Below are positions 7,327 through 30,734 of a stretch of DNA of 64,000 nt, piece after piece. The position numbers and the translations under genes were made by a program. The stretch comes from Eledone cirrhosa (taxonomy: Eukaryota). The DNA is taken from the NCBI GenBank assembly GCA_964016885.1, contig OZ024757.1, positions 1,612,001-1,676,000 on the forward strand. Direction: 5' to 3'. Positions within the stretch are counted from its first letter, which is position 1; each line of letters opens with the position of its first letter. The notes beneath the pieces were generated by a model. It did not search any database. It had not been told where the DNA came from and saw nothing but the letters and a program-made list of their open reading frames with translations.

Positions 7327-7692
7327 TATATATGTGAGTGTATTTTTTGTTTGTTTTTTGTATATATATGTATGTATCATCATGAATGGGTATGCTGTTA
7401 ACCCACCAGGAGTGAGAGACCCATAGTTCTTGTTAAGACATTATTCTCAGAGAAGGAAAACTCAATGGCAGCCAATGATGCTGACTTGGTCTTCATTCTG
7501 GAAACCTGTCACCATTGTTCAGAGAGTTGGATTGGCATAGTGTAAGGCCTTTCTTCACTTAACCTTTCAGCATTTAAATTGGCCTTATCCGGCCAGAATC
7601 CTCACATCTTTCTGTTCAAAGCAGCTGTAACTGGCCGCTCATACTGATGTTAAGGTATTGTTTTCAAAATAAATCTCATAGATTCGATATTA

Positions 7693-8545
7693 TACAATAG
7701 TATATATAATGTAAATGTTATGTGAGATATTATGTGAGGTAAAGCCTTTACTGTGAAAATACAATAGTATATATAGAGTAATGTAAATGTTATGTGAGGT
7801 AAACCTTTACTGTGAAAATACAATAGTATATATAGAGTAATGTAAATGTTATGTGAGATATTATGTGATGTGAAGCCTTTACTGTGAAAATACAATAGTA
7901 TATATATAGAGTAATGTAAATGTTATGAGATATTATGTGAGGTGAAGCCTTTACTGTGAAAATACAATAGTATATATAGAGTAATGTAAATGTTATGTGA
8001 GATATTATGTGGAGTAAAGCCTTTACTGTGAAAATACAATAGTATATATAGAGTCATGTAAATGTTATGTGAGATATTATGTGGAGTAAAGCCTTTACTG
8101 TGAAAATACAATAGTATATATAGAGTAATGTAAATGTTATGTGAGGTAAACCTTTACTGTGAAAATACAATAGTATATATAGAGTAATGTAAATGTTATG
8201 TGAGATATTATGTGAGGTAAGCCTTTACTGTGAAAATACAATAGTATATATAGAGTAATGTAAATATTATGTGAGATATTATGTGAGGTAAACCTATACT
8301 GTGAAAATACAATAGTATATATAGAGTAATGTAAATATTATGTGAGATATTATGTGAGGTAAACCTTTACTGTGAAAATACAATAGTATATATATAGAGT
8401 AATGTAAATATTATGTGAGATATTATGTGAGGTAAAGCCTTTACTGTGAAAATACAATAGTATATATATAGAGTAATGTAAATATTATGTGAGATATTAT
8501 GTGAGGTAAACCTTTACTGTGAAAATACAATAGTATATATAGAAT
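7693..8545 (-). repeat. 72-bp satellite array (3' flank of Tx1 copy 1)
   Basis: Unit ctctatatatactattgtattttcacagtaaaggctttacctcacataatatctcacataacatttacatta on the minus strand. Confidence 0.95.
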
Positions 8546-8782
8546 GGTTTCTTTATTTTCCACTAGGGCACAAAAGGTAGGGACAGATACAAGGGGGGAA
8601 GTTTACATATAATTAACGAGTACAAAAATATAACAATGAAATAACAACAACAAACGAAGTCCTCAATAGGGAGGGGGCATTAACATGGGTCGCACACACC
8701 CCGGAAAAAATGTGCAACCCTTCTCCTCAGGAGCACAAAGAGTAGGTGCTTCCCTCGTCTCCTCTTTTTCCTCTTCTTTCAC

Positions 8783-11700
8783 CTACAGGCTGATATAGAG
8801 AGAAGACCCATTCACTCTGGCCATTCTCCCTACTTTCACCCACCTTTCATAAAACTTGCTGGGGTAGAGCACCTCTCTCTCCATTCTGATCCTTCTTTTA
8901 AAATGGTATTTGAAAAAGGGGACCAGTTGTTGGCCGGAGAGAAAGGTGTCTGACCTCAGCCCTTTCAGCCTCGTCCACCATACAACTTCTTTAGCCATGG
9001 CTATCACACAGAGAAAAACCGCCTCTCCTTCGTTTTTGAAAGGGGGAGGCGGTTTGATCGTGACAATGGACTCGGTGGTCAACCGGATTGGTCCCACCCT
9101 CGACAGTAGTCGTTCCACATAGCCCCACAGGTCAGCAATGCCTGGGCAGTGTACGAATGCGTGCGCAACGGTTTCGTCATCATGCACGCATCTCGGACAG
9201 ATCTTATTCAAAGGATCTCTACCCAGGCTCCCATGCCTGTGGAGCTTGTCTCGAACGGGTAGAGCCCCTCGGTAGCACTGCCAAGCCAGGGACTTTTGGA
9301 AGTTGTCCATCGGTCCAGGGCCAAACGTCCTACCGAACAGACTGGCCAGTTCATCTTCCTCCATGCCTAGAGCTTCTCCGAGAGCATCGTCGCACCTGCT
9401 GCGTACCAACCCTCTATAGAATGTCGAGGTGGAGTCTCCACTGATTGCCGGGTCCGCTTTCCAGAGGGCCGTGAGCGCCTGGGCACATTCAATGTGCCAG
9501 TCGCCCACTTTTCTCGGTCTTTGCTTGACCCAGGATTGCAGCTCGGTGAGCGAGACGAGTCTGGGAAAGGCTCGCCTCACAAACGGGGCCCACACCGGTT
9601 GACCGGTGAGGAATACCTGGAGGTGCCGTAGCCTTAATGCGTGTTTACGCATCTGTAGCCACGGCATCCCCAGCCCTCCTTTCGAAGGGTGTTGACAGCA
9701 GATGGATCTCCTCACCAAAGGGGTCCGCTTGTTCCAAAGAAATTGGAACAGTGCGCACTCCATTTTGGCGAGTCTTTTCACTGGGCAAGGCACGACGGTC
9801 AAGCGGTAGTAGATGACGGATGCTATATAAGTATTCGCCACCTCCGCTCAACCTTTCAGGGATAGTTTGCACTGGGCCCACTTCTGGGTGAGTGCAAACA
9901 CCCTGGCCGTTACCTTGTTCCAGTTTTTCTCCACCTGGAGGTCTGGTCCGAACCAGACCCCAAGCAGCTTCACCGGGCCCTCCGTCCAGCGTCCGACGAC
10001 GTCGTTGGAGGGCATCGGTTTGCCTCTCCATGTTCCGAGTTGCAAACCGACGGACTTGTCCCGGTTCAGCTTGGCTCCCGTAAACCTTTCATATTCCTCC
10101 AGTAAGGTGCCGATCTCACCGATTTGCGAGGTTTTCGACACCATTACTGTCACGTCATCGGCGTAGGCCGACGCCGCTTTCTGCAATCCCGGTTCCAAAG
10201 GGATGCCCTGCAACCGCTCCAACTTCCGCAGTAGTGGCTCAAGAGCCAGCACATACAGTAGGGAGGAGAGAGGGCATCCCTGTCGGATGGATTGCATGAT
10301 TTGGAACGGCTCCGAGAGGTGGCCGTTCACCTTGACCCTTGAGCAGACGTTGCTGCTGTGCATCGCAGCAATCCAACCCCTAAAAACGGGTCCGAAGCCT
10401 GCCGCCGCGAGCACCGCATCCAGGTAACGATGGTCAACCCTATCGAAAGCTTTAGATTGATCCAAGTTGATCAGGGCCCCACCAAAGCCGGGTTCGTTCC
10501 CTACCCTCTCTACGATGTATCGCATGAGGTGGAGGTTGTCGTGTATGGACCTGGACGGGATTGCGCATGTCTGCGCTTCTCCCACCAGGTTCCCGACGAC
10601 AAGTGCCAACCTCTTCGCTAACACCTTGGCCAAAATCTTTAACTCTGTATTTAGCAGAGTTATGGGCCTGAAGTTACTTATGTCATCCCCTTGTTCTCAT
10701 CCTTCCTCACCAGCGTAACTACGCCCTTGGTCACAGAACTGGGAATTCTCCCGTTCTGCTGCCAGTTGCAGTAGACCGCTTCGAGGATATCGGAGAACAA
10801 GTCCGGCATCGCTACATATAACTCGTATGGTAGACCATCGAGACCCGGGGATTTGCGTTTGCCGCATTGGCTCAGCGCCGCCCCTATCTCAGCAGCTGAA
10901 ATCGTCCTTTCGCAGGACTTCGCCTCCGCGTCCGAGAGGCGCGGCAGACCGTCGAGGTATGGATTGAAATCCATAGTCTCACCCGGCGCACCGCCCCTCT
11001 CGAACAGTCGTGCAAAGTGCCGCTGAAAGGCCGCACACATCTGCCCAGGTTCAAGGATCACACGCCCATCCTGGTCCTTCAAAGACCGAATCGTGGACTT
11101 GTTCCCACTTTTTGCCTCTGTCACTCGGGCCCAGCTCACAGCTTTGGCTCCCTCATTACCCAGAGCACGTATTTTACTCCTGACAACGCAGCCTTCATGC
11201 TTCACCTCAAAGAACTGGTCTAAGGCCATTCTTGATGCTAGCACGCCGGCTACATTGCCACTCCTAATCGCCTCTTCTACTCTATCTACTAATTCCCTTT
11301 CCATCTTGTTCCTATCCCTTGCTAATTCCTGACTAAAACCTATCGATTCTATTCTAATTGCTCTCTTAAGAGAGCTCCACCACCTGTTGTTGACAATTGC
11401 CCCTGTCAAACTCTGCTTAACTAACGTGCTAATCCGTTTACTGTAAGCTTTGCTTCTCGGTAAGGACAAGTTCAGCTTGCAGTAACCGGGTCCCTGTCTA
11501 TGGGTTCTATCAAGGTTGGCTATGCAGGTCACTAACTTGTGATCCGAATAGTCAACCATGAACATTTTTGGACAGCTAAATGTGTCCCTATCCTTCTCTC
11601 TAACTAGGACCCTATCTAGGTACGACCTAGATGTTCCACTGCGATTGGTCCACGTCCATAGTGGTACAGTCGGAAAATCTAGTCGATATCTATCGGCCAG

Positions 11701-12219
11701 GTCAAATCGGCCGATTAACCTTTTGAGGCTTTTACACCCCCCTCTATTGGCACATGCCCCTACATAGTCCCAACGTGCATCCAGGATACCATTCCAGTCC
11801 CCCACTAAAAGCAAGGAGCGGGACGTTCCCAGAAAAGTTTCCAGACGTTGGAAGTATTCCGGCCGCGCTGCCCAAAAAGGGGCGTACACAGCTATTAGTC
11901 TAAGGGCTCCACTTTCACTACTGCCGACGTCTAAAACCACCAGTCGACCCTCCAGGTCCAGGTGCACCTTCTGTATGGCGAGGCCCAGGTGTTTTCGCAG
12001 CAGAACGACAACTCCACCCCCACCCACCGGTTGACAGAGAGATGCGAAGATCTCAAAGTCGTCGAAGAGGGGTGCCAGTTGGTGCTCACTGCTGATCCTG
12101 GACTCGCAAATAGCCATTACATCCATTCTATGCGACCTGAGATTGTTTAAAAGTTTGCCTTGTTTCCAAGACAGTCCCAGGCCACGTACATTCAGACACC
12201 CAACTCTTATATCAGCCAT
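8783..12219 (-). pseudogene. Tx1 ORF2 (APE endonuclease, RT, C-terminal zinc motif) with one frameshift (~10690) and one stop (9848)
   Basis: Motifs LNVRGL, LLVGDWN, LDRVLV, SDH; KSPGLDGL, DQSKAFDRVDH, RQGCPLS, YADD; CPRC..ETVAHAFVHC. Confidence 0.9.
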
Positions 12220-12240
12220 GTTGGTTAAAAGAGGAAGGAC

Positions 12241-13968
12241 CTACCTGTTCGGCTCCTGAGGAGCAGGTTGCACAATATCCATGGGCGTATTGGAGGGGTT
12301 GTTTGGTGGGGTGTTGTTCTGTGGTGGAGTGGGGGTGTTTGGTGAGGTGTGGGTGGGGAAACGTTTCAAGAGGACGCGGTTATAGGGTCGAGTACATGTT
12401 TTCCACACGTCCTCAGGAAAGTTCTCTCTTAGTTTTGCATAGGTGTCCATTGGGAGTCTTATCATTTTTAAATGCGGTTTGTTGGCTGCGCTTGCAAAGA
12501 ATTGCCCTTCAGTTTCCACCGAAGGGTCTTTGTGTATTGTTTTTACTAGTTCTTTGTTATTTGTGTTAATGTATGTATACTGTTTTATTTGTGTTGTGTT
12601 TGTTTGTTGTTCTTGTGTGTGCTTACGTTTTGTTGTATGTGTTATGTTTTGGGGTGGGGCGGATTTTGTTTGTTCTGTTTGTTTTGTTTTTGTTGGTGGT
12701 TGTGTGTTTGTTTCGTTTATGTTCGAGTGGTGCTTTCTTTTTTTCCTTTTTACAGGTTGGAAGGGTTCCCCCTCTTCGTCACTAGGTGCCGTTTCCGCTG
12801 GGTCCTCGTCCGTGCTGTCGGGTAGTGGTGTATTTTGGGGTTTTGTTGTATTTGTGTGTGTTTTGGGAGTTGTTTTGGGTGGCGCCGTGTCTTGTGTTAT
12901 TTTTCCGTGTTGTTTTTGTTGTTGTTGTGGTGGTGGTGGTGGAGGTGGTGGCGGTGGTGGTGTGTGGGGTGTAGGCAAAAGAGCCTTTTTTTTTGTCAAT
13001 TGAGGACAAGCAGCCCTTAGATGACCCCTGCTTGAACAGTAGTAACATATGGGCCTCCTACCCTCGGCTGAAATATATATAAATGTTTCTCCATCGAGGG
13101 ACACCCTCTGTGGTATTCTAGCTATTCGTTCTGGTCTCATTTGGACCAGAACCTCCACGCTCAAACCGCCGAAAACGTCTGTGGTGACTTCTCCTACTGA
13201 AAGGATTCCGTCCTCGTCTTCTAAAAATCCTGTTAGTACCCAGGAAATGCATGCATTTGGCCGGATTCCGGAGACCCTTATCTTCTGCGTTCTTTTCCCT
13301 AAATATGTGGGGAAAAATGTATGTAGCTTGGAAACAATTGGCGCCACAGAGTATTTCCTGGCCGTCAATTGATCCTTCATTAGGACCGTTATATTCCCAT
13401 AGAGTGGCCCTTTTTGTATGAACGATATATCACTCCACACATTTTTTAGGACCAGCTCAATCTCTTTTTGGGATAATTGAGTTGGTTTCCTTGTTATGTT
13501 AGAAATTGTTCTGAAAGATATCGTTCTTAGCGTCGTGTCTCTTTTGATTTCTTGTGGGGAGGTGATTGTGAAGTCTCCTCCTTCTTTGAAAGTTACATAC
13601 TGTTTCGCTTCCTTCATCTTTTCTCTCAGAGTTGTAATGTCCAGTTGCTTGCAGGTTTGTGTTTTCCGGACCGCCTGTGCAAAGGAGGCACCAGTAGTGG
13701 GTTCGCTTTGTTTGGTGTTATCGTTATTTTTTCCTTGGTTGGTGTTGTGACTATTGCTGTTATTGTCGTTGTTGTTTTTGTCTGCGTTTATGTGACTTTC
13801 TGGCTTTTCACCCATTTTTACAAATTTTTCTTTTAATTCCGTGTTCCATGTTTCTTTTGCAGAAGTGAGGAGGGAAGACTTAGAGCCTTGTGCTTCTAGC
13901 TTCTCTGTATCACCTTTCTTAGGGGGCGTGGCTTTCACGTTAGGATGAGATGTGAAAATTCCGTCCAT
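12241..13968 (-). CDS. Tx1 ORF1 nucleic-acid-binding protein with CCHC knuckle and Pro/Thr/Gln-rich tail
   Basis: Open frame from ATG 13968; CYYCSSRGHLRAAC fits CX2CX4HX4C. Confidence 0.85.
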   Translation of the reverse strand: MDGIFTSHPNVKATPPKKGDTEKLEAQGSKSSLLTSAKETWNTELKEKFVKMGEKPESHINADKNNNDNNSNSHNTNQGKNNDNTKQSEPTTGASFAQAVRKTQTCKQLDITTLREKMKEAKQYVTFKEGGDFTITSPQEIKRDTTLRTISFRTISNITRKPTQLSQKEIELVLKNVWSDISFIQKGPLYGNITVLMKDQLTARKYSVAPIVSKLHTFFPTYLGKRTQKIRVSGIRPNACISWVLTGFLEDEDGILSVGEVTTDVFGGLSVEVLVQMRPERIARIPQRVSLDGETFIYISAEGRRPICYYCSSRGHLRAACPQLTKKKALLPTPHTPPPPPPPPPPPQQQQKQHGKITQDTAPPKTTPKTHTNTTKPQNTPLPDSTDEDPAETAPSDEEGEPFQPVKRKKRKHHSNINETNTQPPTKTKQTEQTKSAPPQNITHTTKRKHTQEQQTNTTQIKQYTYINTNNKELVKTIHKDPSVETEGQFFASAANKPHLKMIRLPMDTYAKLRENFPEDVWKTCTRPYNRVLLKRFPTHTSPNTPTPPQNNTPPNNPSNTPMDIVQPAPQEPNR

Positions 13969-14178
13969 TTCTATTAGTTTGCCATAATAAATTTTTAACT
14001 GGAAAATTCGCCCCAAAAAGGGGCGAAAATAAATAAACTCAAAGTTTGACGACCAAGGCAAGGGGTTAATGTATATTACAGTATAAAAAAATTAATCAAA
14101 ACTCACTTTTGAGTAAGTAAATCCGACTCGGTAGCCGAGCTTGTTCACACACGTCAACACACGTCTCTCGTATACGAG

Positions 14179-14682
14179 ATGTTATGTGAGATATTATGTG
14201 AGGTAAGCCTTTACTGTGAAAATACAATAGTATATATAGAGTAATGTAAATGTTATGTGAGATATTATGTGAGGTAAAGCCTTTACTGTGAAAATACAAT
14301 AGTATATATAGAGTAATGTAAATGTTATGTGAGATATGTGAGGTAAAGCCTTTACTGTGAAAATACAATAGTATATATAGAGTAATGTAAATGTTATGTG
14401 AGATATTATGTGAGGTGAAGCCTTTACTGTGAAAATACAATAGTATATATAGAGTAATGTAAATGTTATGTGAGATATTATGTGAGGTAAAGCCTTTACT
14501 GTGAAAATACAATAGTATATATAGAGTCATGTAAATGTTATGTGAGATATTATGTGAGGTAAAGCCTTTACTGTGAAAATACAATAGTATATATATAGAG
14601 TAATGTAAATGTTATGTGAGATATTATGTGAGGTAAAGTCTTTACTGTGAAAATACAATAGTATATATAGAGTAATGTAAAT
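14179..14682 (-). repeat. 72-bp satellite array (5' flank of Tx1 copy 1)
   Basis: Same unit, running into the MITE TIR. Confidence 0.95.
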
Positions 14683-14888
14683 GCTAAAGGGTTAAATAAG
14701 TTTCAAACTGAAGCATTGCTTCATCTAAATATGTGTTGCATGAACTTGTTTCTTTCACTGCAACATATACAGAAGGGAGTCTAAGTCCTTGGCAGGACTA
14801 AAAAGTCTTATTTGTGCCACCCAGGTATGAGAAGAAGGTCAAGGAATGGCAATTCTTAAAACTGAGATGCAGCCGTTATATATATATA

Positions 14889-15047
14889 TGCTTTCCAGCA
14901 TAGTTATGTCCCTTTACGTCCCTTTACGGTCTGAGTTCAAATCCCGCCGAGGTTAACTTTGCCTTTCATCCTTACGGGGTCGATAAAATAAAGTACCAGT
15001 AATGTACTGGGTAATTGCTGGCCTTGTGCCAAAAGTAGAAACAGTTA
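14889..15047 (+). mobile_element. SINE, Deu/Nin-like family
   Basis: gagttcaaatcccgccgagg...gcctttcatccttacggggtcgataaaataaagtaccag. Confidence 0.7.
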
Positions 15048-15059
15048 TTTATATATAAG

Positions 15060-15340
15060 GTCTAAAGTCTGTCTTAAGCCAGAAGGCTCATTTAGCCGGT
15101 GCTTATCCCAGTTCCATGGTGTGAAGTGACTGTGAGTACAAGACTACCCCCTGGACAGGATGCCAGTCCATTGCAGGGTTAAACCCCCAGCTATTGCTGG
15201 TACTCATTTTCAGCTGAGTATACTGGAGCAACATGAAATGAAGTGTCTTGCTCAAGAACACAACACACAACCCAGGAATTGAACCCACAATATTATGATT
15301 GTAAGTCCAACACCCTTACCACTAGGCCACGTGCCTCCAC
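15060..15340 (-). mobile_element. tRNA-derived SINE with CORE-like motif
   Basis: Minus strand has tggcctagtggtaaggg (A box), gggttcaattcc (B box) and tgtgttcttgagcaagacactt. Confidence 0.7.
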
Positions 15341-15347
<7 letters not shown>

Positions 15348-15371
<24 letters not shown>

Positions 15372-16412
15372 AAATATTGTATACAGTGCTCAGGTGCACT
15401 ACAACTCATCAAAAGTGTATGTATAGTACATAGGGTAATGTACAAACGTCAGGAAAATGAACAGTGCATGGGTCATGATATACAAATGTGTGCATGTGTA
15501 TGGAAGGGGGACATCAGGTGTAGTTTTGGTAAATTTCGGGAAGCATGAGGGTTTTAAAGGATGCAGTGTCTCGGCAGCTAACAACTGATGCAGGTAGTTT
15601 GTTCCATGCTTCAGAAACTCTGGGTGTGAAAAAATGTTTCCGAAAGTCATGGGAGCTGTGCTGTTTTCTGACTTTGTAGGCATGTCCACCTGTGTTAGAC
15701 ACATGGAGATCAAAAAGGTGCTCAGGGTTGTTGTTGGCAAGATGGTTAATAACTTTGTGGGTGTTTACCAAGTCCGTTGCCAGACGTCGGAGCTTCAATG
15801 AATCCATGCCCAGGGAAGCAAGGCGTTCAGAGTATGGTAGGTGTCTGATGGAAGGTATGCGCTTGGTTGCACGTTTCTGAACAGTTTCCAGGAGGTCAAT
15901 GTTCTGAACAAGATAGGGGTTCCAGACTGATGATGCGAATTCCAAGTGTGGTCGTACCATAGCTGTATACAACTGTAAATAGGTGGCTGGAGAGCGGCTA
16001 ACAAAGGTCTTGCTGAGTGATGCCAAGACACCCTCGACCTTCTTGACAATTTTAGAGATGTGCTTTGTCCAACGCAAATCGCTGCTGACAGTAATGCCCA
16101 GGTCACGTTCACAAGAGGACTTCTTGATATCAGTGTTGTGGAGGGAATATGTGAACGCTGGATTTTTCCTCCAAAAATGCATGGTGGTACAGTTGTCCAC
16201 AGCCAGCTTCAGTTGCCAGTCTGTGATCCATTGCTGCATTGTGTCCAGGTCTGATTGTATGAAAGAGTTATAGATTTCAGGATTGGCCTTTTGATTTCAA
16301 GGTACAGCTTGATGTCATCTGCCTATTTCAGTACTGTGGCATTCTTTAAGCTAGCATCTATGTCATTAATGTATGCAACAAACAAAAGGGGACCAAGAAC
16401 AGATCCCTGTGG
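15348..16412 (-). mobile_element. 5'-truncated CR1-group LINE (RT C-terminal half, (ATT)n tail)
   Basis: VPQGSVLGPLLF..YIND, a decayed ADD motif, VRPHLEFASSVWNP and FFTPRVSEAWNKLP. Confidence 0.85.
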
Positions 16413-16418
16413 TACATA

Positions 16419-16466
<48 letters not shown>

Positions 16467-16468
<2 letters not shown>

Positions 16469-17690
16469 TAGAAGGGGTATTAAATTTGTTGGAAGTCCAA
16501 CAAATATAAATGTTTATAACTGAGTTAGAGCACTCAACAGATAACTGGAGTAAATATTCAATGATATTAAATAAATGGAAACTATATTTATAAAACCATA
16601 TTTATTTTATTATATACTAGCATTAAAGCCCAGCGTTGCTCGGGGTCAGTAAGTTACCAAAGTTAGGTTGCACCACCCATTTTATGGCAGCACTTTTTGT
16701 CTGCCAGACACTGGGTGAATGAATTGCAGACCTGGACTGCCAAAGCAGGAGCTGCACCAACAGTGACAATTGTAGTTTCGCCTATGGATATTATCTCTGT
16801 GCAAAGAAGTGTTGAAATTTATTGTTTCACAGTACTTGCGCAACACGCACGTAGACGATGCCAGCCGAACAACAGAGCTGTGATGGAGTTGTTCTGCATG
16901 GTTGTCTAATGTGTTTTCTAAATTTAAGACAGTAGGGAGGGGTGTGATATGGGGGAGAGTTAGCTGCTGTTTCTAGCAGATTTAGTGACCTCAGAGGATA
17001 TGTTTTCTAAATTTAAGACAGTAGGGAGTGGTGTGTTATGGGGGAGAGTTAGCTGCTGTTTCTAGCAGGTTTAGTGACCTCATAGAGGATATTATTGTGT
17101 ATAGTAAATAAACTGATACTTCTTTCTTCCACGTTCGTTGAGATATTTTTAAAAAGATTTATCGTTATTTTTGTTGTTGTTGAATAAATTTATCTGTTGC
17201 TTTTGAATAATTGTTGTTTTGTATGAAATGTAATAATTTCTCTATGTCATTAAAGTAAATAAATGTTTGACCGTTCCACACTCAAAAACAAACGATCTCT
17301 CTCTCTCCCTCTCTTCGGCGTTCCTAAAGGAAGTTTGTAAGTTTAAGCCTATATAAGAGAAAGTTGCAGACTGTATGTAGTTTTATCGAATTTTAGGGGG
17401 AGTAGAGTGAGGGGTAAAGTGTCATGTATTTAGTTTTATCGATTATTTCCGTAATTGTGGGTGAGTTTGAATGAAATAAATAGTCGTTGACCTAAGTTCG
17501 ACCATTTACAACATTCTTACAGACTTTGAATCGAATCGGTTTGAAATTGTGCAAATGTATAAACATGGAACATGCACACACACACACACACAACAATAAC
17601 AGTATGCCTTTTATAGATATTTCAAGGGTACCAAGACACATTGGTACGCTTTCATCAGATAAAATACAAAGTTTGTTTTATAAATAGAGA
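16467..17690 (-). mobile_element. Hammerhead-bearing element fragment split by a Helitron
   Basis: 16467-16616 and 17618-17690 join into a homolog of 4922-5140. Confidence 0.7.
16617..17617 (-). mobile_element. Non-autonomous Helitron (~1 kb)
   Basis: Minus strand runs 5'-TC...cccgagcaacgctggg hairpin...CTAG-3', inserted between A and T. Its 3' end resembles the Helitron at 31182. Confidence 0.8.
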
Positions 17691-17766
17691 CATACACATG
17701 AAAATCATACCTTATCAGTTGGATATTCACTGGATAGTAAATATCCAACCGATAAGGTATATAAGG

Positions 17767-17769
<3 letters not shown>

Positions 17770-17841
<72 letters not shown>

Positions 17842-17887
17842 TATATATATTATATATATATTATATATATATATATTATATATATAT

Positions 17888-17947
<60 letters not shown>

Positions 17948-18136: not shown

Positions 18137-19362
18137 CTGGGTACCTTCTGTCATGTCACCAGTACTCCCCCCTTTACAGGGTAGACTGGGTACCATGTGC
18201 CATGTCACCAGTACTCTCCCCTTTACAGGGTAGACTGGGTACCTTGTGTCATGTCACCAGTACTCCCCCCTTTACAGGGTAGACTGGGTACCTTCTGTCA
18301 TGTCACCAGTACTCTCCCCTTTACAGGGTAGACTGGGTACCTACTGTCATGTCACCAGTACTCTCCCCTTTACAGGGTAGACTGGGTACCTTCTGTCATG
18401 TCACCAGTACTCTCCCCTTTACAGGGTAGACTGGGTACCTACTGTCATGTCACCAGTACTCCCCCCTTTACAGGGTAGACTGGGTACCTTCTGTCATGTC
18501 ACCAGTACTCCCCCCTTTACAGGGTAGACTGGGTACCTACTGTCATGTCTCCAGTACTCCCCCCTTTACAGGGTAGATTGGGTACCTACTGTCATGTCAC
18601 CAGTACTCCCCCCTTTACAGGGTAGATTGGGTACCTACTGCCATGTCACCAGTACTCCCCCCTTTACAGGGTAGATTGGGTACCTACTGCCATGTCACCA
18701 GTACTCCCCCCTTTACAGGGTAGACTGGGTACCTTGTGCCATGTCACCAGTACTCCCCCCTTTACAGGGTAGACTGGGTACCTTGTGCCATGTCACCAGT
18801 ACTCCCCCCTTTACAGGGTAGACTGGGTACCTTGTGCCATGTCACCAGTACTCCCCCCTTTACAGGGTAGATTGGGTACCTTGTGCCATGTCACCAGTAC
18901 TCCCCCCTTTACAGGGTTGACTGGGTACCTTCTGTCATGTCACCAGTACTCCCCCCTTTACAGGGTAGACTGGGTACCTTGTGTCATGTCACCAGTACTC
19001 CCCCCTTTACAGGGTAGACTGGGTACCTTCTGTCATGTCACCAGTACTCCCCCCTTTACAGGGTAGACTGGGTACCTTGTGCCATGTCACCAGTACTCCC
19101 CCCTTTACAGGGTAGATTGGGTACCTACTGTCATGTCACCAATACTCCCCCCTTTACAGGGTAGACTGGGTACCTACTGCCATGTCACCAGTACTCCCCC
19201 CTTTACAGGGTAGACTGGGTACCTTCTGTCATGTCACCAGTACTACCTCCTTTACAGGGTAGACTGGGTACCTTCTGCCATGTCACCAGTACCCCCCCCC
19301 CTTTACAGGGTAGACTGGGTACCTTGTGCCATGTCACTAGTACTCCCCCCTTTACAGGGTAG
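18137..19362 (+). repeat. 49-bp minisatellite, ~25 units
   Basis: Unit beginning ctgggtaccttctgtcatgtcaccagtact and ending tttacagggtaga starts at 18137, 18186, 18235 and onward. Confidence 0.95.
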
Positions 19363-19411
19363 AAGAGATCACTGGAGGGAAAGGTTGGGTATGTCTTCCA
19401 GTTGTGTCACT

Positions 19412-20050: not shown

Positions 20051-20592
20051 ATCATCATCATCATCGTTTAACATCCAACCTCCACGCTAGCATGGGTTAG
20101 ACGGGAATTGTCACACTTGAGGCAAGGTTGGTCGGGTGACCGTGTCTTGCTCGTATAGGACTGTCTGGCGGGTGTTCTACGGCTGGATGCCCTTCCTAAC
20201 ACCAACCACATTACAGTGTGGACTGGGAGGTTTTTACCGTGTTACCTACACGGCCACATTACAGCGTGGACTGTGTTTTTGTTGTGACACCTCCACGATC
20301 TCATTTATTTAGGACTGGATGTTGTGGTACCAACATAACTTTATAGAGAGAAGGTGGTGTTGGCGGGAGTGAGGTGGAGTAGGGGTAGTGGGGTGGGGTA
20401 GGGTTAGGGGGGTGGGGTGTATATTTGGTTAAGAGGTGCCTACTGACTGTAGGTTTAACTTTCTACATAGGGAACGTGGGTCTTCTGTATTACTACGTAG
20501 CACCAAAGATCTCGGTCCAGTGACATTGTCTTAGAGAGGTGTAAGTGTGTGAGGTCGGAATTTATCAGATCGTCCCAGGTTTTTCTGGGTCT
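20051..20592 (-). mobile_element. RTE LINE 3' end (last codons, 3' UTR, (GAT)n tail)
   Basis: [30 protein letters not shown], homologous to 35392-35900. Confidence 0.85.
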
Positions 20593-20599
20593 CTCTCTT

Positions 20600-20601
20600 T
20601 G

Positions 20602-20663
<62 letters not shown>

Positions 20664-21052: not shown

Positions 21053-21207
21053 TTATTACAACCCTTAAAACAACAGTAATGGGTGTGAAGTCATTCACAC
21101 CAGAACTAAAGAGATGGGAGGGGAATTATCACCTCCACCACCGCCACCACCACCACACCATCAACACGTTTCATTTTGTCTGTTACTTAAGACAATCCAA
21201 TCTTCCC

Positions 21208-22155
21208 ATCTGTCTCAACTCCCACCCTCTCCTATCTCCCCCTCTCTCAACTCCCACCCTCTCTCAACTGCCACCCTCTCTTATCTCCCCCTCTCTCAAC
21301 TCCCACCCTCTCTCAACTGCCACCCTCTCCTATCTCCCCCTCTCTCAACTCCCACCCTCTCTCAACTCCCACCCTCTCCTATCTCCCCCTCTCTCAACTG
21401 CCACCCTCTCCTATCTCCCCCTCTCTCAACTGCCACCCTCTCCTATCTCCCCCCTCTCAACTGCCACCCTCTCCTCTCTCCCCCTCTCTCAACTGCCACC
21501 CTCTCCTCTCTCCCCCCTCTCAACTCCCACCCTCTCCTATCTCCCCCTCTCTCAACTGCCACCCTCTCCTATCTCCCCCTCTCTCAACTGCCACCCTCTC
21601 CTATCTCCCCCCTCTCAACTGCCACCCTCTCCTCTCTCCCCCTCTCCTCTCTCCCCCTCTCTCAACTGCCACCCTCTCCTCTCTCCCCCTCTCCTCTCTC
21701 CCCCTCTCTCAACTGCCACCCTCTCCTCTCTCCCCCTCTCTCAACTGCCACCCTCTCCTATCTCCCCCTCTCTCAACTCCCACCCTCTCCTCTCTCCCCC
21801 TCTCTCAACTGCCACCCTCTCCTATCTCCCCCTCTCTCAACTCCCACCCTCTCCTCTCTCTCAACTCCCACCCTCTCCCCCTCTCTCAACTCCCACCCTC
21901 TCCCATCTCCCCCTCTCTCAACTCCCACCCTCTCCTCTCTCAACTCTCACCCTCTCCTCTCTCCCCCTCTCTCAACTCCCACCCTCTCCCATCTCCCCCT
22001 CTCTCAACTCCCACCCTCTCCCATCTCCCCCTCTCTCAACTCCCACCCTCTCCTCTCTCAACTCTCACCCTCTCCTCTCTCCCCCTCTCTCAACTCCCAC
22101 CCTCTCCCATCTCCCCCTCTCTCAACTGCCACCCTCTCCTATCTCTCCCTCTCCT
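21208..22155 (+). repeat. Pyrimidine-rich variable-unit minisatellite (ctctcaactg/cccaccctctcctatctccccct)
   Basis: Tandem units of about 20-35 bp with extreme C/T strand bias. Confidence 0.9.
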
Positions 22156-22244
22156 TAGACTCATATTTCACCTCTCCCGAGAGTTCTCTACCAATTATAT
22201 AAGAATATTTCAGTAAATTATGTTCCACCATTTTAATAATTGTT

Positions 22245-22610
22245 TCTACTTTTGGCAAATACCCAGTGCATTACTGGTACTTTATTGTACTGGGTAATTG
22301 CTGGCCTTGTGCCAAAAGTAGAAACAATTATTAAAATGGAGGTGTATTGGCAGAATCGGTAGAGTGCCGGACGCCAGCCATGCTTTGCAGCATAGATTTA
22401 CGGCCCTTTATTTTAATAAGGGTTCCTGGCACATGACTAAGGGGAGTTGATTAAATCAAACCCAGTACGTGACTGGTACTTTATTTTATTGACCCTGTAA
22501 GGATGAAAAGCACAGCTAACTTCAGCGGGATATGAACACAGAATGTAAAGGGCCGTAACTCTATGCCACAAAGCATGTTGTCCAACGCTCTACCGATTAT
22601 TGCCAATTTA
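22245..22610. mobile_element. Cluster of SINE fragments in both orientations (Deu/Nin-like family)
   Basis: ctggccttgtgccaaaagtagaaac on +; ctggtactttattttattgaccctgtaaggatgaaaag is the reverse complement of the family core. Confidence 0.6.
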
Positions 22611-22681
22611 CTAATGAACTGATTAATAGTTTTAGTAAATCTTTTCAAATTCTACATTAAATAATTCCCGTGTCCAGTCGT

Positions 22682-22890
22682 TTGAGTGAAGTCAAGTTGA
22701 ATGGAGTCAAGTTGAGTGAAGTCAAGTTGAGTGAAGTCAAGTTGAGCTAAGTTAAGTCGAGTGATGTCAAGTTGAGCTAAGTTAAGTTGAGTGATGTCAA
22801 GTTGAGCTAAGTTAAGTCGAGTGATGTCAAGTTGAGCTAAGTTAAGTCGAGTGATGTCAAGTTGAGCTAAGTTAAGTTGAGTGAAGTTAA
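22682..22890 (+). repeat. Short-period repeat (5-bp aagtt/gagt base, 15/30-bp higher order)
   Basis: caagttgagctaagttaagtcgagtgatgt is repeated. Confidence 0.85.
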
Positions 22891-23200
22891 AATTAGGAAA
22901 AAGTTGAAGGAAAAGTCTGCAAAGCTGTAACATGTGATCCACGGAGACACTCCGCAATGTTATTGCTGAGCTACCAAACTTGCAGCAAAGATTGGATCAG
23001 GAGCAAAATTAAAACGTACTGTATCTAGGAGGCAAAGATCTCTGGGGAACTACCCTCCACCCCACCCAATACACAGCTTCCATTGTTATTCCAGAATCCC
23101 TGCATCGCTGCCAAATGGACGATAGTATATATTTCACTTAAAATTAATATTCACTGAAATTACTGTTAGCTCTTAACCCTTTAATATTTACATTACTATA

Positions 23201-23292
23201 CAAGCAAGACAACCAATCTTGCCTCACGTGGGACAATTCCCGTCTAAACCCATGCTAGTATGGAAGATAGACGTTAAACGATGATGATGATG
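23201..23292 (+). mobile_element. Short RTE-type 3' tail inserted in the first satellite unit
   Basis: ccgtctaaacccatgctagtatggaagatagacgttaaac+(gat)n. Confidence 0.75.
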
Positions 23293-23992
23293 ACTCTATA
23301 TATACTATTGTATTTTCACAGTAAAGGCTTTACCTCACATAATATCTCACATAACATTTACATTACTCTCTATATACTATTGTATTTTCACAGTAAAGGC
23401 TTTACCTCACATAATATCTCACATAACATTTACATTACTCTATATATACTATTGTATTTTCACAGTAAAGGCTTTACCTCACATATTATCTCACATAACA
23501 TTTATATTACTCTATATATACTATTGTATTTTCACAGTAAAGGCTTTACCTCACATAATATCTCACATAACATTTACATTACTCTATATATACTATTGTA
23601 TTTTCACAGTAAAGGCTTTACCTCACATAATATCTCACATAACATTTACATTACTCTATACATACTATTGTATTTTCACAGTAAAGCCTTTACCTCACAT
23701 AATATCTCACATATCTTTTACATTACTCTATATATACTATTGTATTTTCACAGTAAAGGCTTTACCTCACATATTATCTCACATAACATTTACATTACTC
23801 TATATATACTATTGTATTTTCACAGTAAAGGCTTTACCGCACATAACATTTACATTACTCTATATATACTATTGTATTTTCACAGAACATTTTATTTCAC
23901 ATAATTATCTCACATAACATTTACATTACTCTATATATACTATTGTATTTTCACAGTAAAGGCTTTACCTCACATAATATCTCACATAACAT
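23293..23992 (+). repeat. 72-bp satellite array (5' flank of Tx1 copy 2)
   Basis: Same unit; the ORF track shows a 24-aa periodicity. Confidence 0.95.
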
Positions 23993-24202
23993 CTCGTATA
24001 CGAGAGACGTGTGTTGACGTGTGTGAACAAGCTCGGCTACCGAGTCGGATTTACTTACTCAAAAAGTGAGTTTTGATTAATTTTTTATACTGTAATATAC
24101 GTTAACCCCTTGCCTTGGTCGTCAAACTTTGAGTTTATTTATTTTCGCCCCTTTTTGGGGCGAATTTTCCAGTTAAAAATTTATTACGGCAAACTAATAG
24201 AA

Positions 24203-25948
24203 ATGGACGGAATTTTCACATCTCATCCTAACGTGAAAGCCACGCCCCCTAAGAAAGGTGATACAGAGAAGCTAGAAGCACAAGGCTCTAAGTCTTCCCT
24301 CCTGACTTCTGCAAAAGAAACATGGAACACGGAATTAAAAGAAAAATTTGAAAAAATGGGTGAAAACCCAGAAAGTCACATAAACGCAGACAAAAACAAC
24401 AACGACAATAACAGCAATAGTCACAACACCAACCAAGGAAAAAATAACGATAACACCAAACAAAGCGAACCCACTACTGGTGCCTCCTTTGCACAGGCGG
24501 TCCGGAAAACACAAACCTGCAAGCAACTGGACATTACAACTCTGAGAGAAAAGATGAAGGAAGCGAAACAGTATGTAACTTTCAAAGAAGGAGGAGACTT
24601 CACAATCACCTCCCCACAAGAAATCAAAAGAGACACGACGCTAAGAACGATATCTTTCAGAACAATTTCCAACATAACAAGGAAACCAACTCAATTATCC
24701 CAAAAAGAGATTGAGCTGGTCCTAAAAAATGTGTGGAGTGATATATCGTTCATACAAAAAGGGCCACTCTATGGGAATATAACGGTCCTAATGAAGGATC
24801 AATTGACGGCCAGGAAATACTCTGTGGCACCAATTGTTTCCAAGCTACATACATTTTTCCCCACATATTTAGGGAAAAGAACGCAGAAGATAAGGGTCTC
24901 CGGAATCCGGCCAAATGCATGCATTTCCTGGGTACTAACAGGGTTTTTAGAAGACGAGGACGGAATCCTCTCAGTAGGAGAAGTCACCACAGACGTTTTC
25001 GGCGGTTTGAGCGTGGAGGTTCTGGTCCAAATGAGACCAGAACGAATCGCTAGAATACCACAGAGGGTGTCCCTCGATGGAGAAACATTTATATATATTT
25101 CAGCCGAGGGTAGGAGGCCCATATGTTACTACTGTTCAAGCAGGGGTCATCTAAGGGCTGCTTGTCCTCAATTGACAAAAAAAAAGGCTCTTTTGCCTAC
25201 ACCCCACACACCACCACCACCGCCACCACCACCACCACCACCACCTCCACCACCACCACCACAACAACAACAAAAACAACAGGGAAAAATAACACAAGAC
25301 ACGGCCCCACCCAAAACAACTCCCAAAATACACACAAATACAACAAAACCCCAAAATACACCACTACCCGACAGCACGGACGAGGACCCAGCGGAAACGG
25401 CACCTAGTGACGAAGAGGGGGAACCCTTCCAACCTGTAAAAAGGAAAAAAAGAAAGCACCACTCGAACATAAACGAAACAAACACACAACCACCAACAAA
25501 AACAAAACAAACAGAACAAACAAAATCCGCCCCACCCCAAAACATAACACATACAACAAAACGTAAGCACACACAAGAACAACAAACAAACACAACACAA
25601 ATAAAACAGTATACATACATTAACACAAATAACAAAGAACTAGTAAAAACAATACACAAAGACCCTTTGGTGGAAACTGAAGGACAATTCTTTGCAAGCG
25701 CGGCCAACAAACCGCATTTAAAAATGATAAGACTCCCAATGGACACCTATGCAAAACTAAGAGAGAACTTTCCTGAGGACGTGGGGAAAACATGTACTCG
25801 ACCCTATAACCGCGTCCTCTTGAAACGTTTCCCCACCCACACCTCACCAAACACCCCCACTCCACCACAGAACAACACCCCACCAAACAACCCCTCCAAT
25901 ACGCCCATGGATATTGTGCAACCTGCTCCTCAGGAGCCGAACAGGTAG
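24203..25948 (+). CDS. Tx1 ORF1 protein with CCHC zinc knuckle
   Basis: Open frame from ATG 24203; the poly-Pro run is 6 residues longer than in copy 1. Confidence 0.85.
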   Translation: MDGIFTSHPNVKATPPKKGDTEKLEAQGSKSSLLTSAKETWNTELKEKFEKMGENPESHINADKNNNDNNSNSHNTNQGKNNDNTKQSEPTTGASFAQAVRKTQTCKQLDITTLREKMKEAKQYVTFKEGGDFTITSPQEIKRDTTLRTISFRTISNITRKPTQLSQKEIELVLKNVWSDISFIQKGPLYGNITVLMKDQLTARKYSVAPIVSKLHTFFPTYLGKRTQKIRVSGIRPNACISWVLTGFLEDEDGILSVGEVTTDVFGGLSVEVLVQMRPERIARIPQRVSLDGETFIYISAEGRRPICYYCSSRGHLRAACPQLTKKKALLPTPHTPPPPPPPPPPPPPPPPPQQQQKQQGKITQDTAPPKTTPKIHTNTTKPQNTPLPDSTDEDPAETAPSDEEGEPFQPVKRKKRKHHSNINETNTQPPTKTKQTEQTKSAPPQNITHTTKRKHTQEQQTNTTQIKQYTYINTNNKELVKTIHKDPLVETEGQFFASAANKPHLKMIRLPMDTYAKLRENFPEDVGKTCTRPYNRVLLKRFPTHTSPNTPTPPQNNTPPNNPSNTPMDIVQPAPQEPNR

Positions 25949-25969
25949 GTCCTTCCTCTTTTAACCAAC

Positions 25970-28900
25970 ATGGCTGATATAAGAGTTGGGTGTCTGAATG
26001 TACGTGGCCTGGGACTGTCTTGGAAACAAGGCAAACTTTTAAACGATCTCAGGTCGCATAGAATGGATGTAATGGCTATTTGCGAGTCCAGGATCAGCAG
26101 CGAGCACCAACTGGCGCCCCTCTTCGACGACTTTGAGATCTTCGCATCTCTCTGTCAACCGGGGGGTGGGGGTGGAGTTGTCGTTCTGCTGCGAAAACAC
26201 CTGGGCCTCGCCATACAGAAGGTGCACCTGGACCCGGAGGGTCGACTGGTGGTTTTAGACGTCGGCAGTAGTGAAAGTGGAGCACTTAGACTAATAGCTG
26301 TGTACGCCCCTTTTTGGGCAGCGCGGCCGGAATACTTCCAACGTCTGGAAACTTTTCTGGGAACGTCCCGCTCCTTGCTTTTAGTGGGGGACTGGAATGG
26401 TATCCTGGATGCACGTTGGGACTATGTAGGGGCATGTGCCAATAGAGGGGGGTGTAAAAGCCTCAAAAGGTTAATCGGCCGATTTGACCTGGCCGATAGA
26501 TATCGACTAGATTTTCCGACTGTACCACTATGGACGTGGACTAATCGCAGTGGAACATCTAGGTCGTACCTAGATAGGGTCCTAGTTAGAGAGAACGATA
26601 GGGACACATTTAGCTGTCCAAAAATGTTCATGGTTGACTATTCGGATCACAAGTTAGTGACCTGCATAGCCAACCTTGATAGAACCCATAGACAGGGACC
26701 CGGTTACTGGAAGCTGAACTTGTCCTTACCGAGAAGCAAAGCTTACAGTAAACGGATTAGCACGTTAGTCAAGCAGAGTTTGACAGGGGCAATTGTCAAC
26801 AACAGGTGGTGGAGCTCTCTTAAGAGAGCAATTAGAATAGAATCGATAGGTTTTAGTCAGGAATTAGCAAGGGATAGGAACAAGACGGAAAGGGAATTAG
26901 TAGATAGAGTAGAAGAGGCGATTAGGAGTGGCAATGTAGCCGGCGTGCTGGCATCAAGAATGGCCTTAGACCAGTTCTTTGAGGTGAAGCATGAAGGCTG
27001 CGTTGTCAGGAGTAAAATACGTGCTCTGGGTAATGAGGGAGCCAAAGCTGTAAGCTGGGCCCCGAGTGACAGAGGCAAAAAGTGGGAACAAGTCCACGAT
27101 TCGGTCTTTGAAGGACCAGGATGGGCGTGTGATCCTTGAACCTGGGCAGATGTGTGCGGCCTTTCAGCGGCACTTTGCACGACTGTTCGAGAGGGGCGGC
27201 GCGCCGGGTGAGACTATGGATTTCAATCCATACCTCGACGGTCTGCCGCGCCTCTCGGACGCGGAGGCGAAGTCCTGCGAAAGGACGATTTCAGCTGCTG
27301 AGATAGGGGCGGCGCTGAGCCAATGCGGCAAACGCAAATCCCCGGGTCTCGATGGTCTACCATACGAGCTATATGTAGCGATGCCGGACTTGTTCTCCGA
27401 TATCCTCGAAGCGGTCTACTGCAACTGGCAGCAGAACGGGAGAATTCCCAGTTCTGTGACCAAGGGCGTAGTTACGCTGGTGAGGAAGGATGAGAACAAG
27501 GGGGATGACATAAGTAACTTCAGGCCCATAACTCTGCTAAATACAGAGTTAAAGATTTTGGCCAAGGTGTTAGCGAAGAGGTTGGCGCTTGTTGTTGGAA
27601 ACCTGGTGGGAGAAGCGCAGACATGCGCAATCCCGTCCAGGTCCATTCACGACAATCTCCACCTTATGCGATACATCATAGAGAGGGTAGGGAATGAACC
27701 CGGCTTTGGTGGGGCCCTGATCAACTTGGATCAATCTAAAGCTTTCGATAGGGTTGACCATCGTTACCTGGATGCGGTGCTCGCGGCGGCAGGCTTCGGA
27801 CCCGTTTTCAGGGGTTGGATTGCTGCGATGCACAGCAGCAACGTCTGCTCAAGGGTCAAGGTGAACGGCCACCTCTCGGAGCCGTTCCAAATCATGCGAT
27901 CCATCCGACAGGGATGCCCTCTCTCCTCCCTACTGTATGTGCTGGCTCTTGAGCCACTACTGCGGAAGTTGGAGCGGTTGCAGGGCATCCCTTTGGAACC
28001 GGGATTGCAGAAAGCGGCGTCGGCCTACGCCGATGACGTGACAGTAATGGTGTCGAAAACCTCGCAAATCGGTGAGATCGGCACCTTACTGGAGGAATAT
28101 GAAAGGTTTACGGGAGCCAAGCTGAACCGGGACAAGTCCGTCGGTTTGCAACTCGGAACATGGAGAGGCAAACCGATGCCCTCCAACGACGTCGTCGGAC
28201 GCTGGACGGAGGGCCCGGTGAAGCTGCTTGGGGTCTGGTTCGGACCAGACCTCCAGGTGGAGAAAAACTGGAACGAGGTAACGGCCAGGGTGTTTGCACT
28301 CACCCAGAAGTGGGCCCAGTGCAAACTATCCCTGAAAGGTCGAGCGGAGGTGGCGAATACTTATATAGCATCCGTCATCTACTACCGCTTGACCGTCGTG
28401 CCTTGCCCAGTGAAAAGACTCGCCAAAATGGAGTGCGCGCTGTTCCAATTTCTTTGGAACAAGCGGACCCCTTTGGTGAGGAGATCCATCTGCTGTCAAC
28501 ACCCTTCGAAAGGAGGGCTGGGGATGCCGTGGCTACAGATGCGTAAACACGCATTAAGGCTACGGCACCTCCAGGTATTCCTCACCAGTCAACCGGTGTG
28601 GGCCCCGTTTGTGAGGCGAGCCTTTCCCAGACTCGTCTCGCTCACCGAGCTGCAATCCTGGGTCAAGCAAAGACCGAGAAAAGTGGGCGACTGGCACATT
28701 GAATGTGCCCAGGCGCTCACGGCCCTCTGGAAAGCGGACCCGGCAATCAGTGGAGACTCCACCTCGACATTCTATAGAGGGTTGGTACGCAGCAGGTGCG
28801 ACGATGCTCTCGGAGAAGCTCTAGGCATGGAGGAAGATGAACTGGCCAGTCTGTTCGGTAGGACGTTTGGCCCTGGACCGATGGACAACTTCCAAAAGTC

Positions 28901-29408
28901 CCTGGCTTGGCAGTGCTACCGAGGGGCTCTACCCGTTCGAGACAAGCTCCACAGGCATGGGAGCCTGGGTAGAGATCCTTTGAATAAGATCTGTCCGAGA
29001 TGCGTGCATGATGACGAAACCGTTGCGCACGCATTCGTACACTGCCCAGGCATTGCTGACCTGTGGGGCTATGTGGAACGACTACTGTCGAGGGTGGGAC
29101 CAATCCGGTTGACTACCGAGTCCATTGTCACGATCAAACAGCCTCCCCCTTTCAAAAACGAAGGAGAGGCGGTTTTTCTCTGTGTGGTAGCCATGGCTAA
29201 AGAAGTTGTATGGTGGACGAGGCTGAAAGGGCTGAGGTCAGACACCTTTCTCTCCGGCCAACAACTGGTCCCCTTTTTCAAATACCATTTTAAAAGAAGG
29301 ATCAGAATGGAGAGAGAGGTGCTCTACCCCAGCAAGTTTTATGAAAGGTGGGTGAAAGTAGGGAGAATGGCCAGAGTGAATGGGTCTTCTCTCTATATCA
29401 GCCTGTAG
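25970..29408 (+). pseudogene. Tx1 ORF2 (APE-RT-Zn), ~1145 aa if a single +1 frameshift at ~27060 is corrected
   Basis: ORFs 25970-27139 and 27066-29408; there is an extra C in gggccccgag relative to copy 1. Confidence 0.9.
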
Positions 29409-29645
29409 GTGAAAGAAGAGGAAAAAGAGGAGACGAGGGAAGCACCTACTCTTTGTGCTCCTGAGGAGAAGGGTTACACATTTTTTCCGGGGTGTGTGCG
29501 ACCCATGTTAATGCCCCCTCCCTATTGAGGACTTCGTTTGTTGTTGTTATTTCATTGTTGTATTTTTGTACTCGTTAATTATATGTAAACTTCCCCCCTT
29601 GTATCTGTCCCTACCTTTTGTGCCCTAGTGGCAAATAAAGAAACC

Positions 29646-30495
29646 ACTCTATATATACTATTGTATTTTCACAGTAAAGGCTTTACCTCACATATCTCAC
29701 ATAACATTTACATTACTCTATATATACTATTGTATTTTCACAGTAAAGGCTTTACCTCACATAATATCTCACATAACATTTACATTACTCTATATATACT
29801 ATTGTATTTTCACAGTAAAGGCTTACCTCACATAATATCTCACATAACATTTACATTACTCTATATATACTATTGTATTTTCACAGTAAAGGCTTTACCT
29901 CACATAATATCTCACATAACATTTACATTACTCTATATATACTATTGTATTTTCACAGTAAAGGCTTTACCTCACATAATATCTCACATAACATTTATAT
30001 TACTCTATATATACTATTGTATTTTCACAGTAAAGGCTTACCTCACATAATATCTCACATAACATTTACATTACTCTATATATACTATTGTATTTTCACA
30101 GTAAAGGCTTTACCTCACATAATATCTCACATAACATTTACATTACTCTATATATACTATTGTATTTTCACAGTAAAGGCTTTACCTCACATAATATCTC
30201 ACATAACATTTACATTACGCTATATATACTATTGTATTTTCACAGTAAAGGCTTTACCTCACATATTATCTCATAACATTTACATTACTCTATATATACT
30301 ATTGTATTTTCACAGTAAAGGCTTTACCTCACATAATATCTCACATAACATTTACATTACGCTATATATACTATTGTATTTTCACAGTAAAGGCTTTACC
30401 TCACATATTATCTCATAACATTTACATTACTCTATATATACTATTGTATTTTCACAGTAAACATTTTATTTCACATAATTATCTCACATAATATC
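29646..30495 (+). repeat. 72-bp satellite array (3' flank of Tx1 copy 2)
   Basis: Same unit. Confidence 0.95.
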
Positions 30496-30734
30496 AAATC
30501 TATGAGATTTTGATATAATTTATTTTGAGAAGAATATCTTAACATAAGTATGAACAGCCAGTTACAGCTTGTTTGAACAGAAAGAGGTGAGAGAGTCCTG
30601 GCTGGATATGGTCGGTTTTAATACTAATGGGTTAATGGTTTGCTCAAAACACCGTATTTCCTTGAAGATGCTACTTTTTTCCTAAAATAAGTCACAAAAT
30701 GTAGCATGTGTCCTGGAGGCTGCAGGTTGTTTCA

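Follow-up and report, generated by a model that had tools for sequence, protein, structure and literature searches.

The two copies and their host elements

The window analysed here is a 64,000-nucleotide stretch of Eledone cirrhosa DNA (assembly GCA_964016885.1, contig OZ024757.1, positions 1,612,001 to 1,676,000). It contains two full-length copies, A and B, of one long interspersed nuclear element (LINE). Each copy is located inside a tandem array of 72-bp units, and each array is carried by its own miniature inverted-repeat transposable element (MITE) flanked by TTAA. The LINE is quite probably a recently active, sequence-specific element of cephalopods, of the L1/Tx1 group with an apurinic/apyrimidinic endonuclease (APE), that inserted independently into the 72-bp repeat of a TTAA MITE. 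Coordinates within the window are given in Table 1.

Table 1. Positions of the LINE copies, their open reading frames (ORFs), the host MITEs and the associated repeats in the window.
Feature	Coordinates	Strand	Remarks
LINE copy A	8546-14178	-	full length, 5633 nt
ORF1 of A	12241-13968	-	575 aa, open
ORF2 of A	12219-8783	-	broken: frameshift near 10691, stop at 9850
LINE copy B	23993-29645	+	full length, 5653 nt; 210-nt 5' untranslated region (UTR); 3' end is AATAAA plus 6 nt, without poly(A)
ORF1 of B	24203-25948	+	581 aa, open; CX2CX4HX4C knuckle at aa 308-321; no Pfam match
ORF2 of B	25970-29408	+	APE endonuclease PF03372, reverse transcriptase (RT) PF00078 (YADD), C-terminal zf-RVT PF13966; frameshift near 27060
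MITE A body	7563-14691	-	TTAA at 7559-7562 and 14692-14695; imperfect terminal inverted repeats
MITE B body	23177-30631	+	TTAA at 23173-23176 and 30632-30635; imperfect terminal inverted repeats
72-bp array upstream of LINE A	14179-14686	-	7 units, the last one ending at position 65
72-bp array downstream of LINE A	7707-8545	-	11 units and terminal unit
72-bp array upstream of LINE B	23293-23992	+	10 units, the last one ending at position 65; unit 9 similar to terminal unit
72-bp array downstream of LINE B	29646-30491	+	11 units and terminal unit
Unique right end of MITE A	7563-7690	-	81-84% like 30491-30631
Unique right end of MITE B	30491-30631	+	counterpart of 7563-7690
Dispersed repeat of ~100 nt with (GAT)n tail	23190-23292	+	inside first unit of MITE B only

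Copies A and B are 99.04% identical when aligned (5578 matches, 54 mismatches and 22 gap columns), and neither is intact. The two loci appear in a self-comparison of the window as an inverted match of 7.1 kb at 97% (7559-14686 against 30635-23496). Both copies are preceded by ...CTCACATAACAT and followed by A(C/T)TCTATATATAC. Their 3' terminus is ...AATAAAGAAACC, without poly(A). When the arrays are parsed into units, both insertion points fall between positions 65 and 1 of the 72-mer, with 7 nt absent. If insertion were independent and random, the chance of finding both copies of the window in the repeat, in one register and on one strand, would be ~2e-5. These results uphold the sequence-only reading, which had reported two full-length LINEs about 99% identical at one register of the 72-mer, each without poly(A) and missing 7 nt of the unit. 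The same reading had claimed that there is no target-site duplication, and this stands in part. In a tandem array a 7-nt deletion is formally indistinguishable from a 65-nt duplication. The two 65-mers flanking each LINE are 3 events apart at A and 1 event apart at B, which weakly favours deletion over duplication.

The 5' end of LINE B is a perfect 12-nucleotide palindrome, and the 5' UTR (23993-24205) folds better than shuffled sequences (z -2.73). No stable fold was found in the 3' UTR (z +1.19). A scan of 7400-31000 against Rfam gave 17 matches at E<=0.1, all below the gathering score and none within the LINEs or the arrays.

TTAA duplication together with terminal inverted repeats opening with CC are features of piggyBac-type elements. 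Both MITEs are flanked by TTAA, and their imperfect terminal inverted repeats of ~14 nt open with CC. On these terminal sequences the hosts are classed as non-autonomous, piggyBac-like TTAA elements. Their unique right ends had been put at about 80% alike; they measure 77% by gapped BLAST, 81% in the BLAST core and 84% over ungapped columns. Outside the MITEs the two loci have only dispersed repeats in common and no collinear sequence, as expected from the earlier statement that the flanks are unrelated and the arrangement is not a simple inverted duplication. An ancient inverted duplication of the flanks was considered and rejected, as the shared pieces are dispersed repeats in mixed orientation.

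A dispersed repeat of ~110 nt is found within 800 nt on either side of both MITEs (6678-6784, 14914-15020, 22460-22558 and 30771-30877), in mixed orientation. Two of its copies are 98% alike, and it is probably a common repeat resembling a short interspersed nuclear element. Pieces related to the (GAT)n-tailed repeat of MITE B are located at 1079-1139, 20052-20164 and 35393-35494. Two units before LINE B, the unit at 23857-23927 (B_up_9) is a MITE terminal unit by its sequence, a sign of unequal exchange within array B.

The layout of the LINE is that of the L1 group: ORF1 is followed by an ORF2 with an APE endonuclease, an RT and a C-terminal cysteine motif. The APE motifs were found in copy B. 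In a search of the Protein Data Bank (PDB), the APE domain matches L1 endonuclease structures, and the RT matches L1 ORF2p at E about 1e-43, with R2 at 1e-23 or weaker. A CCHC zinc knuckle in ORF1 is typical of Tx1 and not known from vertebrate L1; ORF1 here has CX2CX4HX4C at amino acid 308. The best Atlas cluster carries the name TX1 (score 0.97). Among proteins with a name, those of Argonauta hians (64%) and Acanthosepion pharaonis (51%) are nearest, which points to a host that is probably an octopod. In a quick tree of 36 of 37 rows (a Paragonimus row was dropped), copy B falls with Argonauta and Acanthosepion in a 13-row clade (support 99), nested in a 20-row clade (95) with a coral protein named TX1, fish and ray. 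Plant, fungal and algal rows fall apart from the 20-row clade.

These results support placement in the L1/Tx1 group. Strict membership of the Tx1 clade is likely, on the strength of automatic protein names; it is graded no higher because the tree was built without reference Tx1 families (Tx1L, Keno, Kibi, Koshi) or vertebrate L1, and fungal rows bear the automatic name TX1 as well. One further protein, P0130, labelled Herbaspirillum sp. (a metagenome-assembled genome, on a 1775-nt contig), is 63% identical to the end of ORF2. It is probably animal DNA in a bacterial bin.

Origin of the copies and the family in other organisms

Two sister copies made by DNA copying would decay neutrally, and descent through active elements passes a filter of selection, so the share of synonymous differences separates the two. 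The coding regions of A and B differ at 49 places in 1709 codons, 30 of them synonymous. Under neutrality with identical substitution types 14.6 are expected, and none of 5000 simulations reaches 30. The differences are locally dense in one stretch of the RT (10496-10604 in A, 27587-27695 in B), where 9 substitutions, 8 of them synonymous, fall in 110 nt (P=0.0002). By its sequence, this patch marks one copy as an apparent mosaic with a related subfamily, produced by template switch or gene conversion. With the patch removed, the excess persists (22 of 40 synonymous, 11.7 expected, P=0.0008). It is present in ORF1 alone (10 of 16, 4.3 expected, P=0.002) and in ORF2 without the patch (12 of 24, 7.4 expected, P=0.04). 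Because of this excess, A and B most simply derive from different functional source elements.

The flanking units give a second comparison, since flanks copied together with the LINE should be collinear, and those of A and B are not. Between the units adjacent to the junctions 5 events are counted where the LINE's rate predicts 1.4 (P=0.013), and their likeness does not exceed that of A-B unit pairs drawn at random (P=0.61). Over eight collinear unit pairs the differences add up to 24 events; random pairs give 21, and co-copying at the LINE's rate would give 5.4. This comparison is to be read with the faster mutation of arrays than of unique DNA in mind.

The LINE family is present in 8 of 12 listed sequencing runs, which carry five organism labels and come from four studies; run X9, with a share of 0.00, carries no weight here. 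Four of the 12 runs (X1, X2, X4 and X10, all DNA) were mapped on copy A, extended by flanks of 33 and 38 nt. The results below draw on 15 of the 1283 joints, 24 of the 6309 loose ends and 24 of the 105721 pieces from this mapping. Run X1 has another organism label (organism A) and is independent of the window; in it, one contig spans 8524-8861 end to end and extends 22 nt into the repeat (depth 12.2), and another spans 13607-14206 and extends 28 nt into the repeat (depth 10.2). Both junction contigs are unbranched, and contigs of the LINE body have a depth of 7.5-11. The dominant path at both LINE ends in X1 is that of the A and B junctions; contigs drop rare variants, so minority flanks may exist in this run. 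A joint corresponding to the empty site (8543 to 14179) is present in all four mapped runs.

At position 12796, X1 has a letter that is common to X2 and absent from A, B and X4; X1 is therefore not simply loci A and B. Ten more of the places listed, in ORF1 and the 5' UTR, carry fixed differences in X2, and none of these is a difference between A and B. Together these letters identify X1 and X2 as separate lineages. Site 12521, where X1 has the letter of B and X4 that of A, was set aside as a lineage marker: it is a CpG and may be homoplasic. At the base level, two copies from different sources share both junctions, and so does a third lineage (X1). The claim of a target-specific Tx1 LINE is retained as far as independent insertion at a fixed site (from the synonymous excess, the non-collinear units and the X1 junctions) and the L1/Tx1 group are concerned.

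A single ORF1 fragment accounts for 36,971 reads of X10 (about 0.6% of pairs), and the cut sites match SphI and MluCI. The run behaves as a double-digest restriction-site associated library of these two enzymes, which is biased against repeat-embedded ends, and it was not used for junction read-through. As an order-of-magnitude guess, if the genome is taken to be 2.8 Gb and the size window is varied, the family in X10 has roughly 140-980 copies. Part of the 3' UTR (8570-8650) is far deeper than its neighbours: X10 has 1139 reads at 8593 and 31 at 8673, and X4 has 106,334 and 8,100. This stretch may be a tail shared with related families or with a short partner element; an MluCI site at 8611 contributes in X10. 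An exact search of metagenome contigs with the 3' end of the LINE gave no match. A pattern search for related loci (alignment A3) gave 105 metagenome, 35 prokaryote-genome and 21 viral matches, none of which was confirmed.

Proposed insertion route and competing explanations

The APE domain would nick the bottom strand at unit position 72|1, in 5'-GAGT^AATG-3'. The first nick is placed at the 3' junction because target-primed reverse transcription is the established route for such elements. Reverse transcription would be primed at this nick with no poly(A) tail involved; cutting or resolution of the top strand 7 nt upstream would give the 7-nt deletion. More speculatively, the RNA would start in the upstream repeat and the end of the cDNA would anneal to the target, so that the 7-nt deletion is copied precisely each time. 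Given targeted independent insertion, such co-transcription of the upstream repeat has about an even chance of being right. Three lineages (A, B and X1) with one precise 5' junction fit the route described for melanogaster-type R1. The array would provide the LINE with a multicopy, dispensable and self-renewing safe haven.

A bolder version holds that the LINE is an independently evolved invertebrate counterpart of Tx1L in Tx1D. It would be transcribed from the MITE repeat and copy its own 7-nt deletion, and its nicking would expand and homogenise the array across loci. Its basis is that the units are nearly identical across MITEs whose ends are ~18% diverged. If true, this would be a retrotransposon cultivating its own target satellite, which is considered a long shot.

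Several observations weigh against independent, targeted insertion or against the route proposed for it. Direct read-through into the repeat was seen for X1 and not for X2, X4 or X10 in the rows listed. No 5'-truncated copy joined to the repeat was found among the 15 joints and 24 loose ends listed. Depth in X10 is 1139 at 8593 and 736 at 8559, which means that some relatives depart from the LINE sequence short of its end; they have a stretch of the 3' UTR in common with it and may be followed by other flanks. Extensive conversion from other family members could mimic the synonymous excess. The mean unit difference is 2.6 events between A and B, 2.8 within A and 2.2 within B. As units of the two MITEs are as alike as units of one array and the MITE ends are not, the arrays exchange sequence across MITEs and could carry a LINE along. 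A ribozyme like that of hepatitis delta virus was not found by Rfam in 7400-31000, nor by a descriptor on 23900-24330 (0 matches; this descriptor is weak, as 100 shuffles likewise yielded 0 and a positive control was lacking). A duplex between the 5' UTR and the repeat looked attractive in one fold (z -2.96) and was then rejected: z is already -2.73 for the UTR by itself, and 22.6% of shuffles form a duplex at least as good. With no ribozyme and with pairing no better than in shuffles, co-transcription is without direct support.

One alternative is a loosely targeted, mostly dispersed LINE that prefers a short motif or structure, such as T^AA beside a TA run, with the 72-bp repeat as the commonest good site. 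The proposed nick at T^AA resembles the L1 consensus (PMC1950540). ORF2 is covered by reads from many relatives to a far greater depth than ORF1, the 3' UTR depth drops before the LINE end, and the base-level evidence consists of two loci and one collapsed lineage. However, no further piece of the LINE was found in the 64-kb window, though TA runs are plentiful there, the X1 contigs cross both junctions unbranched at body depth, and loose targeting would not be expected to leave a precise 5' deletion. This alternative is considered unlikely.

Another explanation is one ancient insertion followed by spread at the DNA level, through array recombination, gene conversion or transposition of the MITE and LINE as a composite. 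No endonuclease specificity would be needed. It draws on two full-length copies with identical junctions, inverted and 9 kb apart, and on arrays homogenised across both MITEs, with the unit at 23857-23927 as a recombinant of terminal type. The 110-nt dense patch adds to this, as it indicates some exchange between the copies. Such spread predicts no selection on the ORFs, yet both ORF1 and ORF2 have an excess of synonymous differences even without the patch. The flanking units are not collinear, and other organisms carry their own variants of the family. The 81-84% likeness of the MITE ends and the insertion found in MITE B only exclude recent movement of a whole composite between these two sites. 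Spread at the DNA level is accordingly held to be improbable as the origin of both copies.

An assembly artefact or recent segmental inverted duplication, suggested by the 7.1-kb inverted match at 97%, is very improbable: the two loci are set apart by 54 substitutions, have frameshifts, unit numbers and unit variants of their own and diverged MITE ends, and lie in unrelated outer flanks, and the same junctions are present in an independent run (X1).

Other parts of the window contain further repeats. A second, unrelated APE-RT LINE at 53681-56629 (+), which we take to be RTE-like, is split into 681 and 244 amino acids and has a PHD-finger match after the RT (E 1.2e-6). Pieces related to it are located near 35775-36371 and 275-859. 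Long simple arrays comprise 6.9 kb of an 18-nt AC-rich unit (41477-48386) and 4.8 kb of an AT-rich repeat (56771-61543). Minisatellites have units of 99 bp (21 copies, 1876-3956), 49 bp (25 copies, 18137-19363) and 48 bp (44 copies, 37905-40008). Three ORF fragments on the minus strand, at 15514-16239, 33159-33776 and 63329-63931, have no Pfam match and are presumably the ends of a CR1/L2-type LINE, a Helitron and a Penelope element, respectively.

Comparison with known systems

The insertion site of Tx1L of Xenopus laevis lies in an internal tandem repeat of Tx1D. Tx1L makes a target-site duplication of ~23 bp and is not known to have a poly(A) tail; the LINE described here has a 7-nt deletion (formally a 65-nt duplication) in place of that duplication. 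It also differs from Tx1L in its invertebrate host, its 72-bp target unit and its hairpin loop, which is unlike the Tx1L loop grafted in PDB 2v0r. The Tx1L endonuclease nicks almost only its target, and the bases after the nick are AGTT in Tx1L and AATG at the site proposed here (PMC1950540). In Xenopus the Tx1 element targets Tx1D, a piggyBac family that is non-autonomous (PMC4494074); insertion of Tx1L into Tx1D had been stated in the earlier reading. Both systems place a two-ORF APE-RT LINE at a fixed site of a non-autonomous piggyBac element. By analogy, the present LINE appears to work like Tx1L in Tx1D but is not Tx1L, and its deletion junction is R1-like.

In crocodilians, Tx1-Mar families have a preference for Mariner-N4_AMi and Tx1-9_AMi one for Harbinger elements; satellites are also among Tx1 targets (PMC4494074). 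These families likewise favour other transposons or satellites. The crocodilian families are old (85-87% to consensus) and preferential, whereas the present LINE is young (99%), base-precise in the copies seen and located inside a TTAA-MITE repeat. In the same paper, Kojima (2015) calls a family target-specific when one target makes up >20% of flanks; here both of the two window copies and the dominant contig path of X1 are flanked by the repeat, a share that refers to the window and X1. Tx1 targeting of non-autonomous DNA transposons has already been published more than once (PMC4494074).

In melanogaster-type R1, a precise 9-bp deletion is explained by upstream target sequence in the transcript that anneals to the cDNA, and other junctions vary (Stage and Eickbush, PMC2718515). 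R1A is likewise an APE-type site-specific LINE with a precise short target deletion. In the present family such a deletion was found at the full-length 5' junction of A, B and one X1 contig. R1 belongs to another clade and has a 28S rDNA target and a 9-bp deletion; here the deletion is 7 nt, the target is a MITE repeat and co-transcription is a proposal. Short arrays inside MITEs are known from DTC84 of Donax (PMC3879986) and from the Xstir array on a Xenopus MITE (PMC6947457). By description these resemble MITEs A and B, and LINE targeting is not mentioned in the parts of the two papers covered.

For Octopus vulgaris, 80 L1-Tx1 consensus families are described, 13 of them recently active with 421 insertions; the main-text parts and supplement covered contain no analysis of their targets (PMC13282606). 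Another source, in the parts covered, mentions octopus L1-Tx1 only as expanded (PMC8967140). No paper on a cephalopod Tx1 target was found in the open literature; subscription journals, Repbase Reports, Dfam or the O. vulgaris Zenodo library may hold the family, and the label "probably uncatalogued" of the sequence-only reading is to that extent tentative.

Nothing published is overturned by this LINE, as its class of behaviour is already in print. With it, the Tx1-type targeting known in vertebrates, aimed at non-autonomous DNA transposons, would reach into the cephalopods, and the LINE with its 72-mer could be used to ask whether satellites borne by MITEs are shaped by LINE nicking. Since the family is young, its target short and defined and its endonuclease frame open, APE specificity and second-strand joining can be put to a direct test. 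Its deletion resembles that of R1 more than the duplication of Tx1L, and would represent a second origin of that joining route. As a "parasite of a parasite", the LINE parallels the Tx1 elements of frogs and crocodiles.

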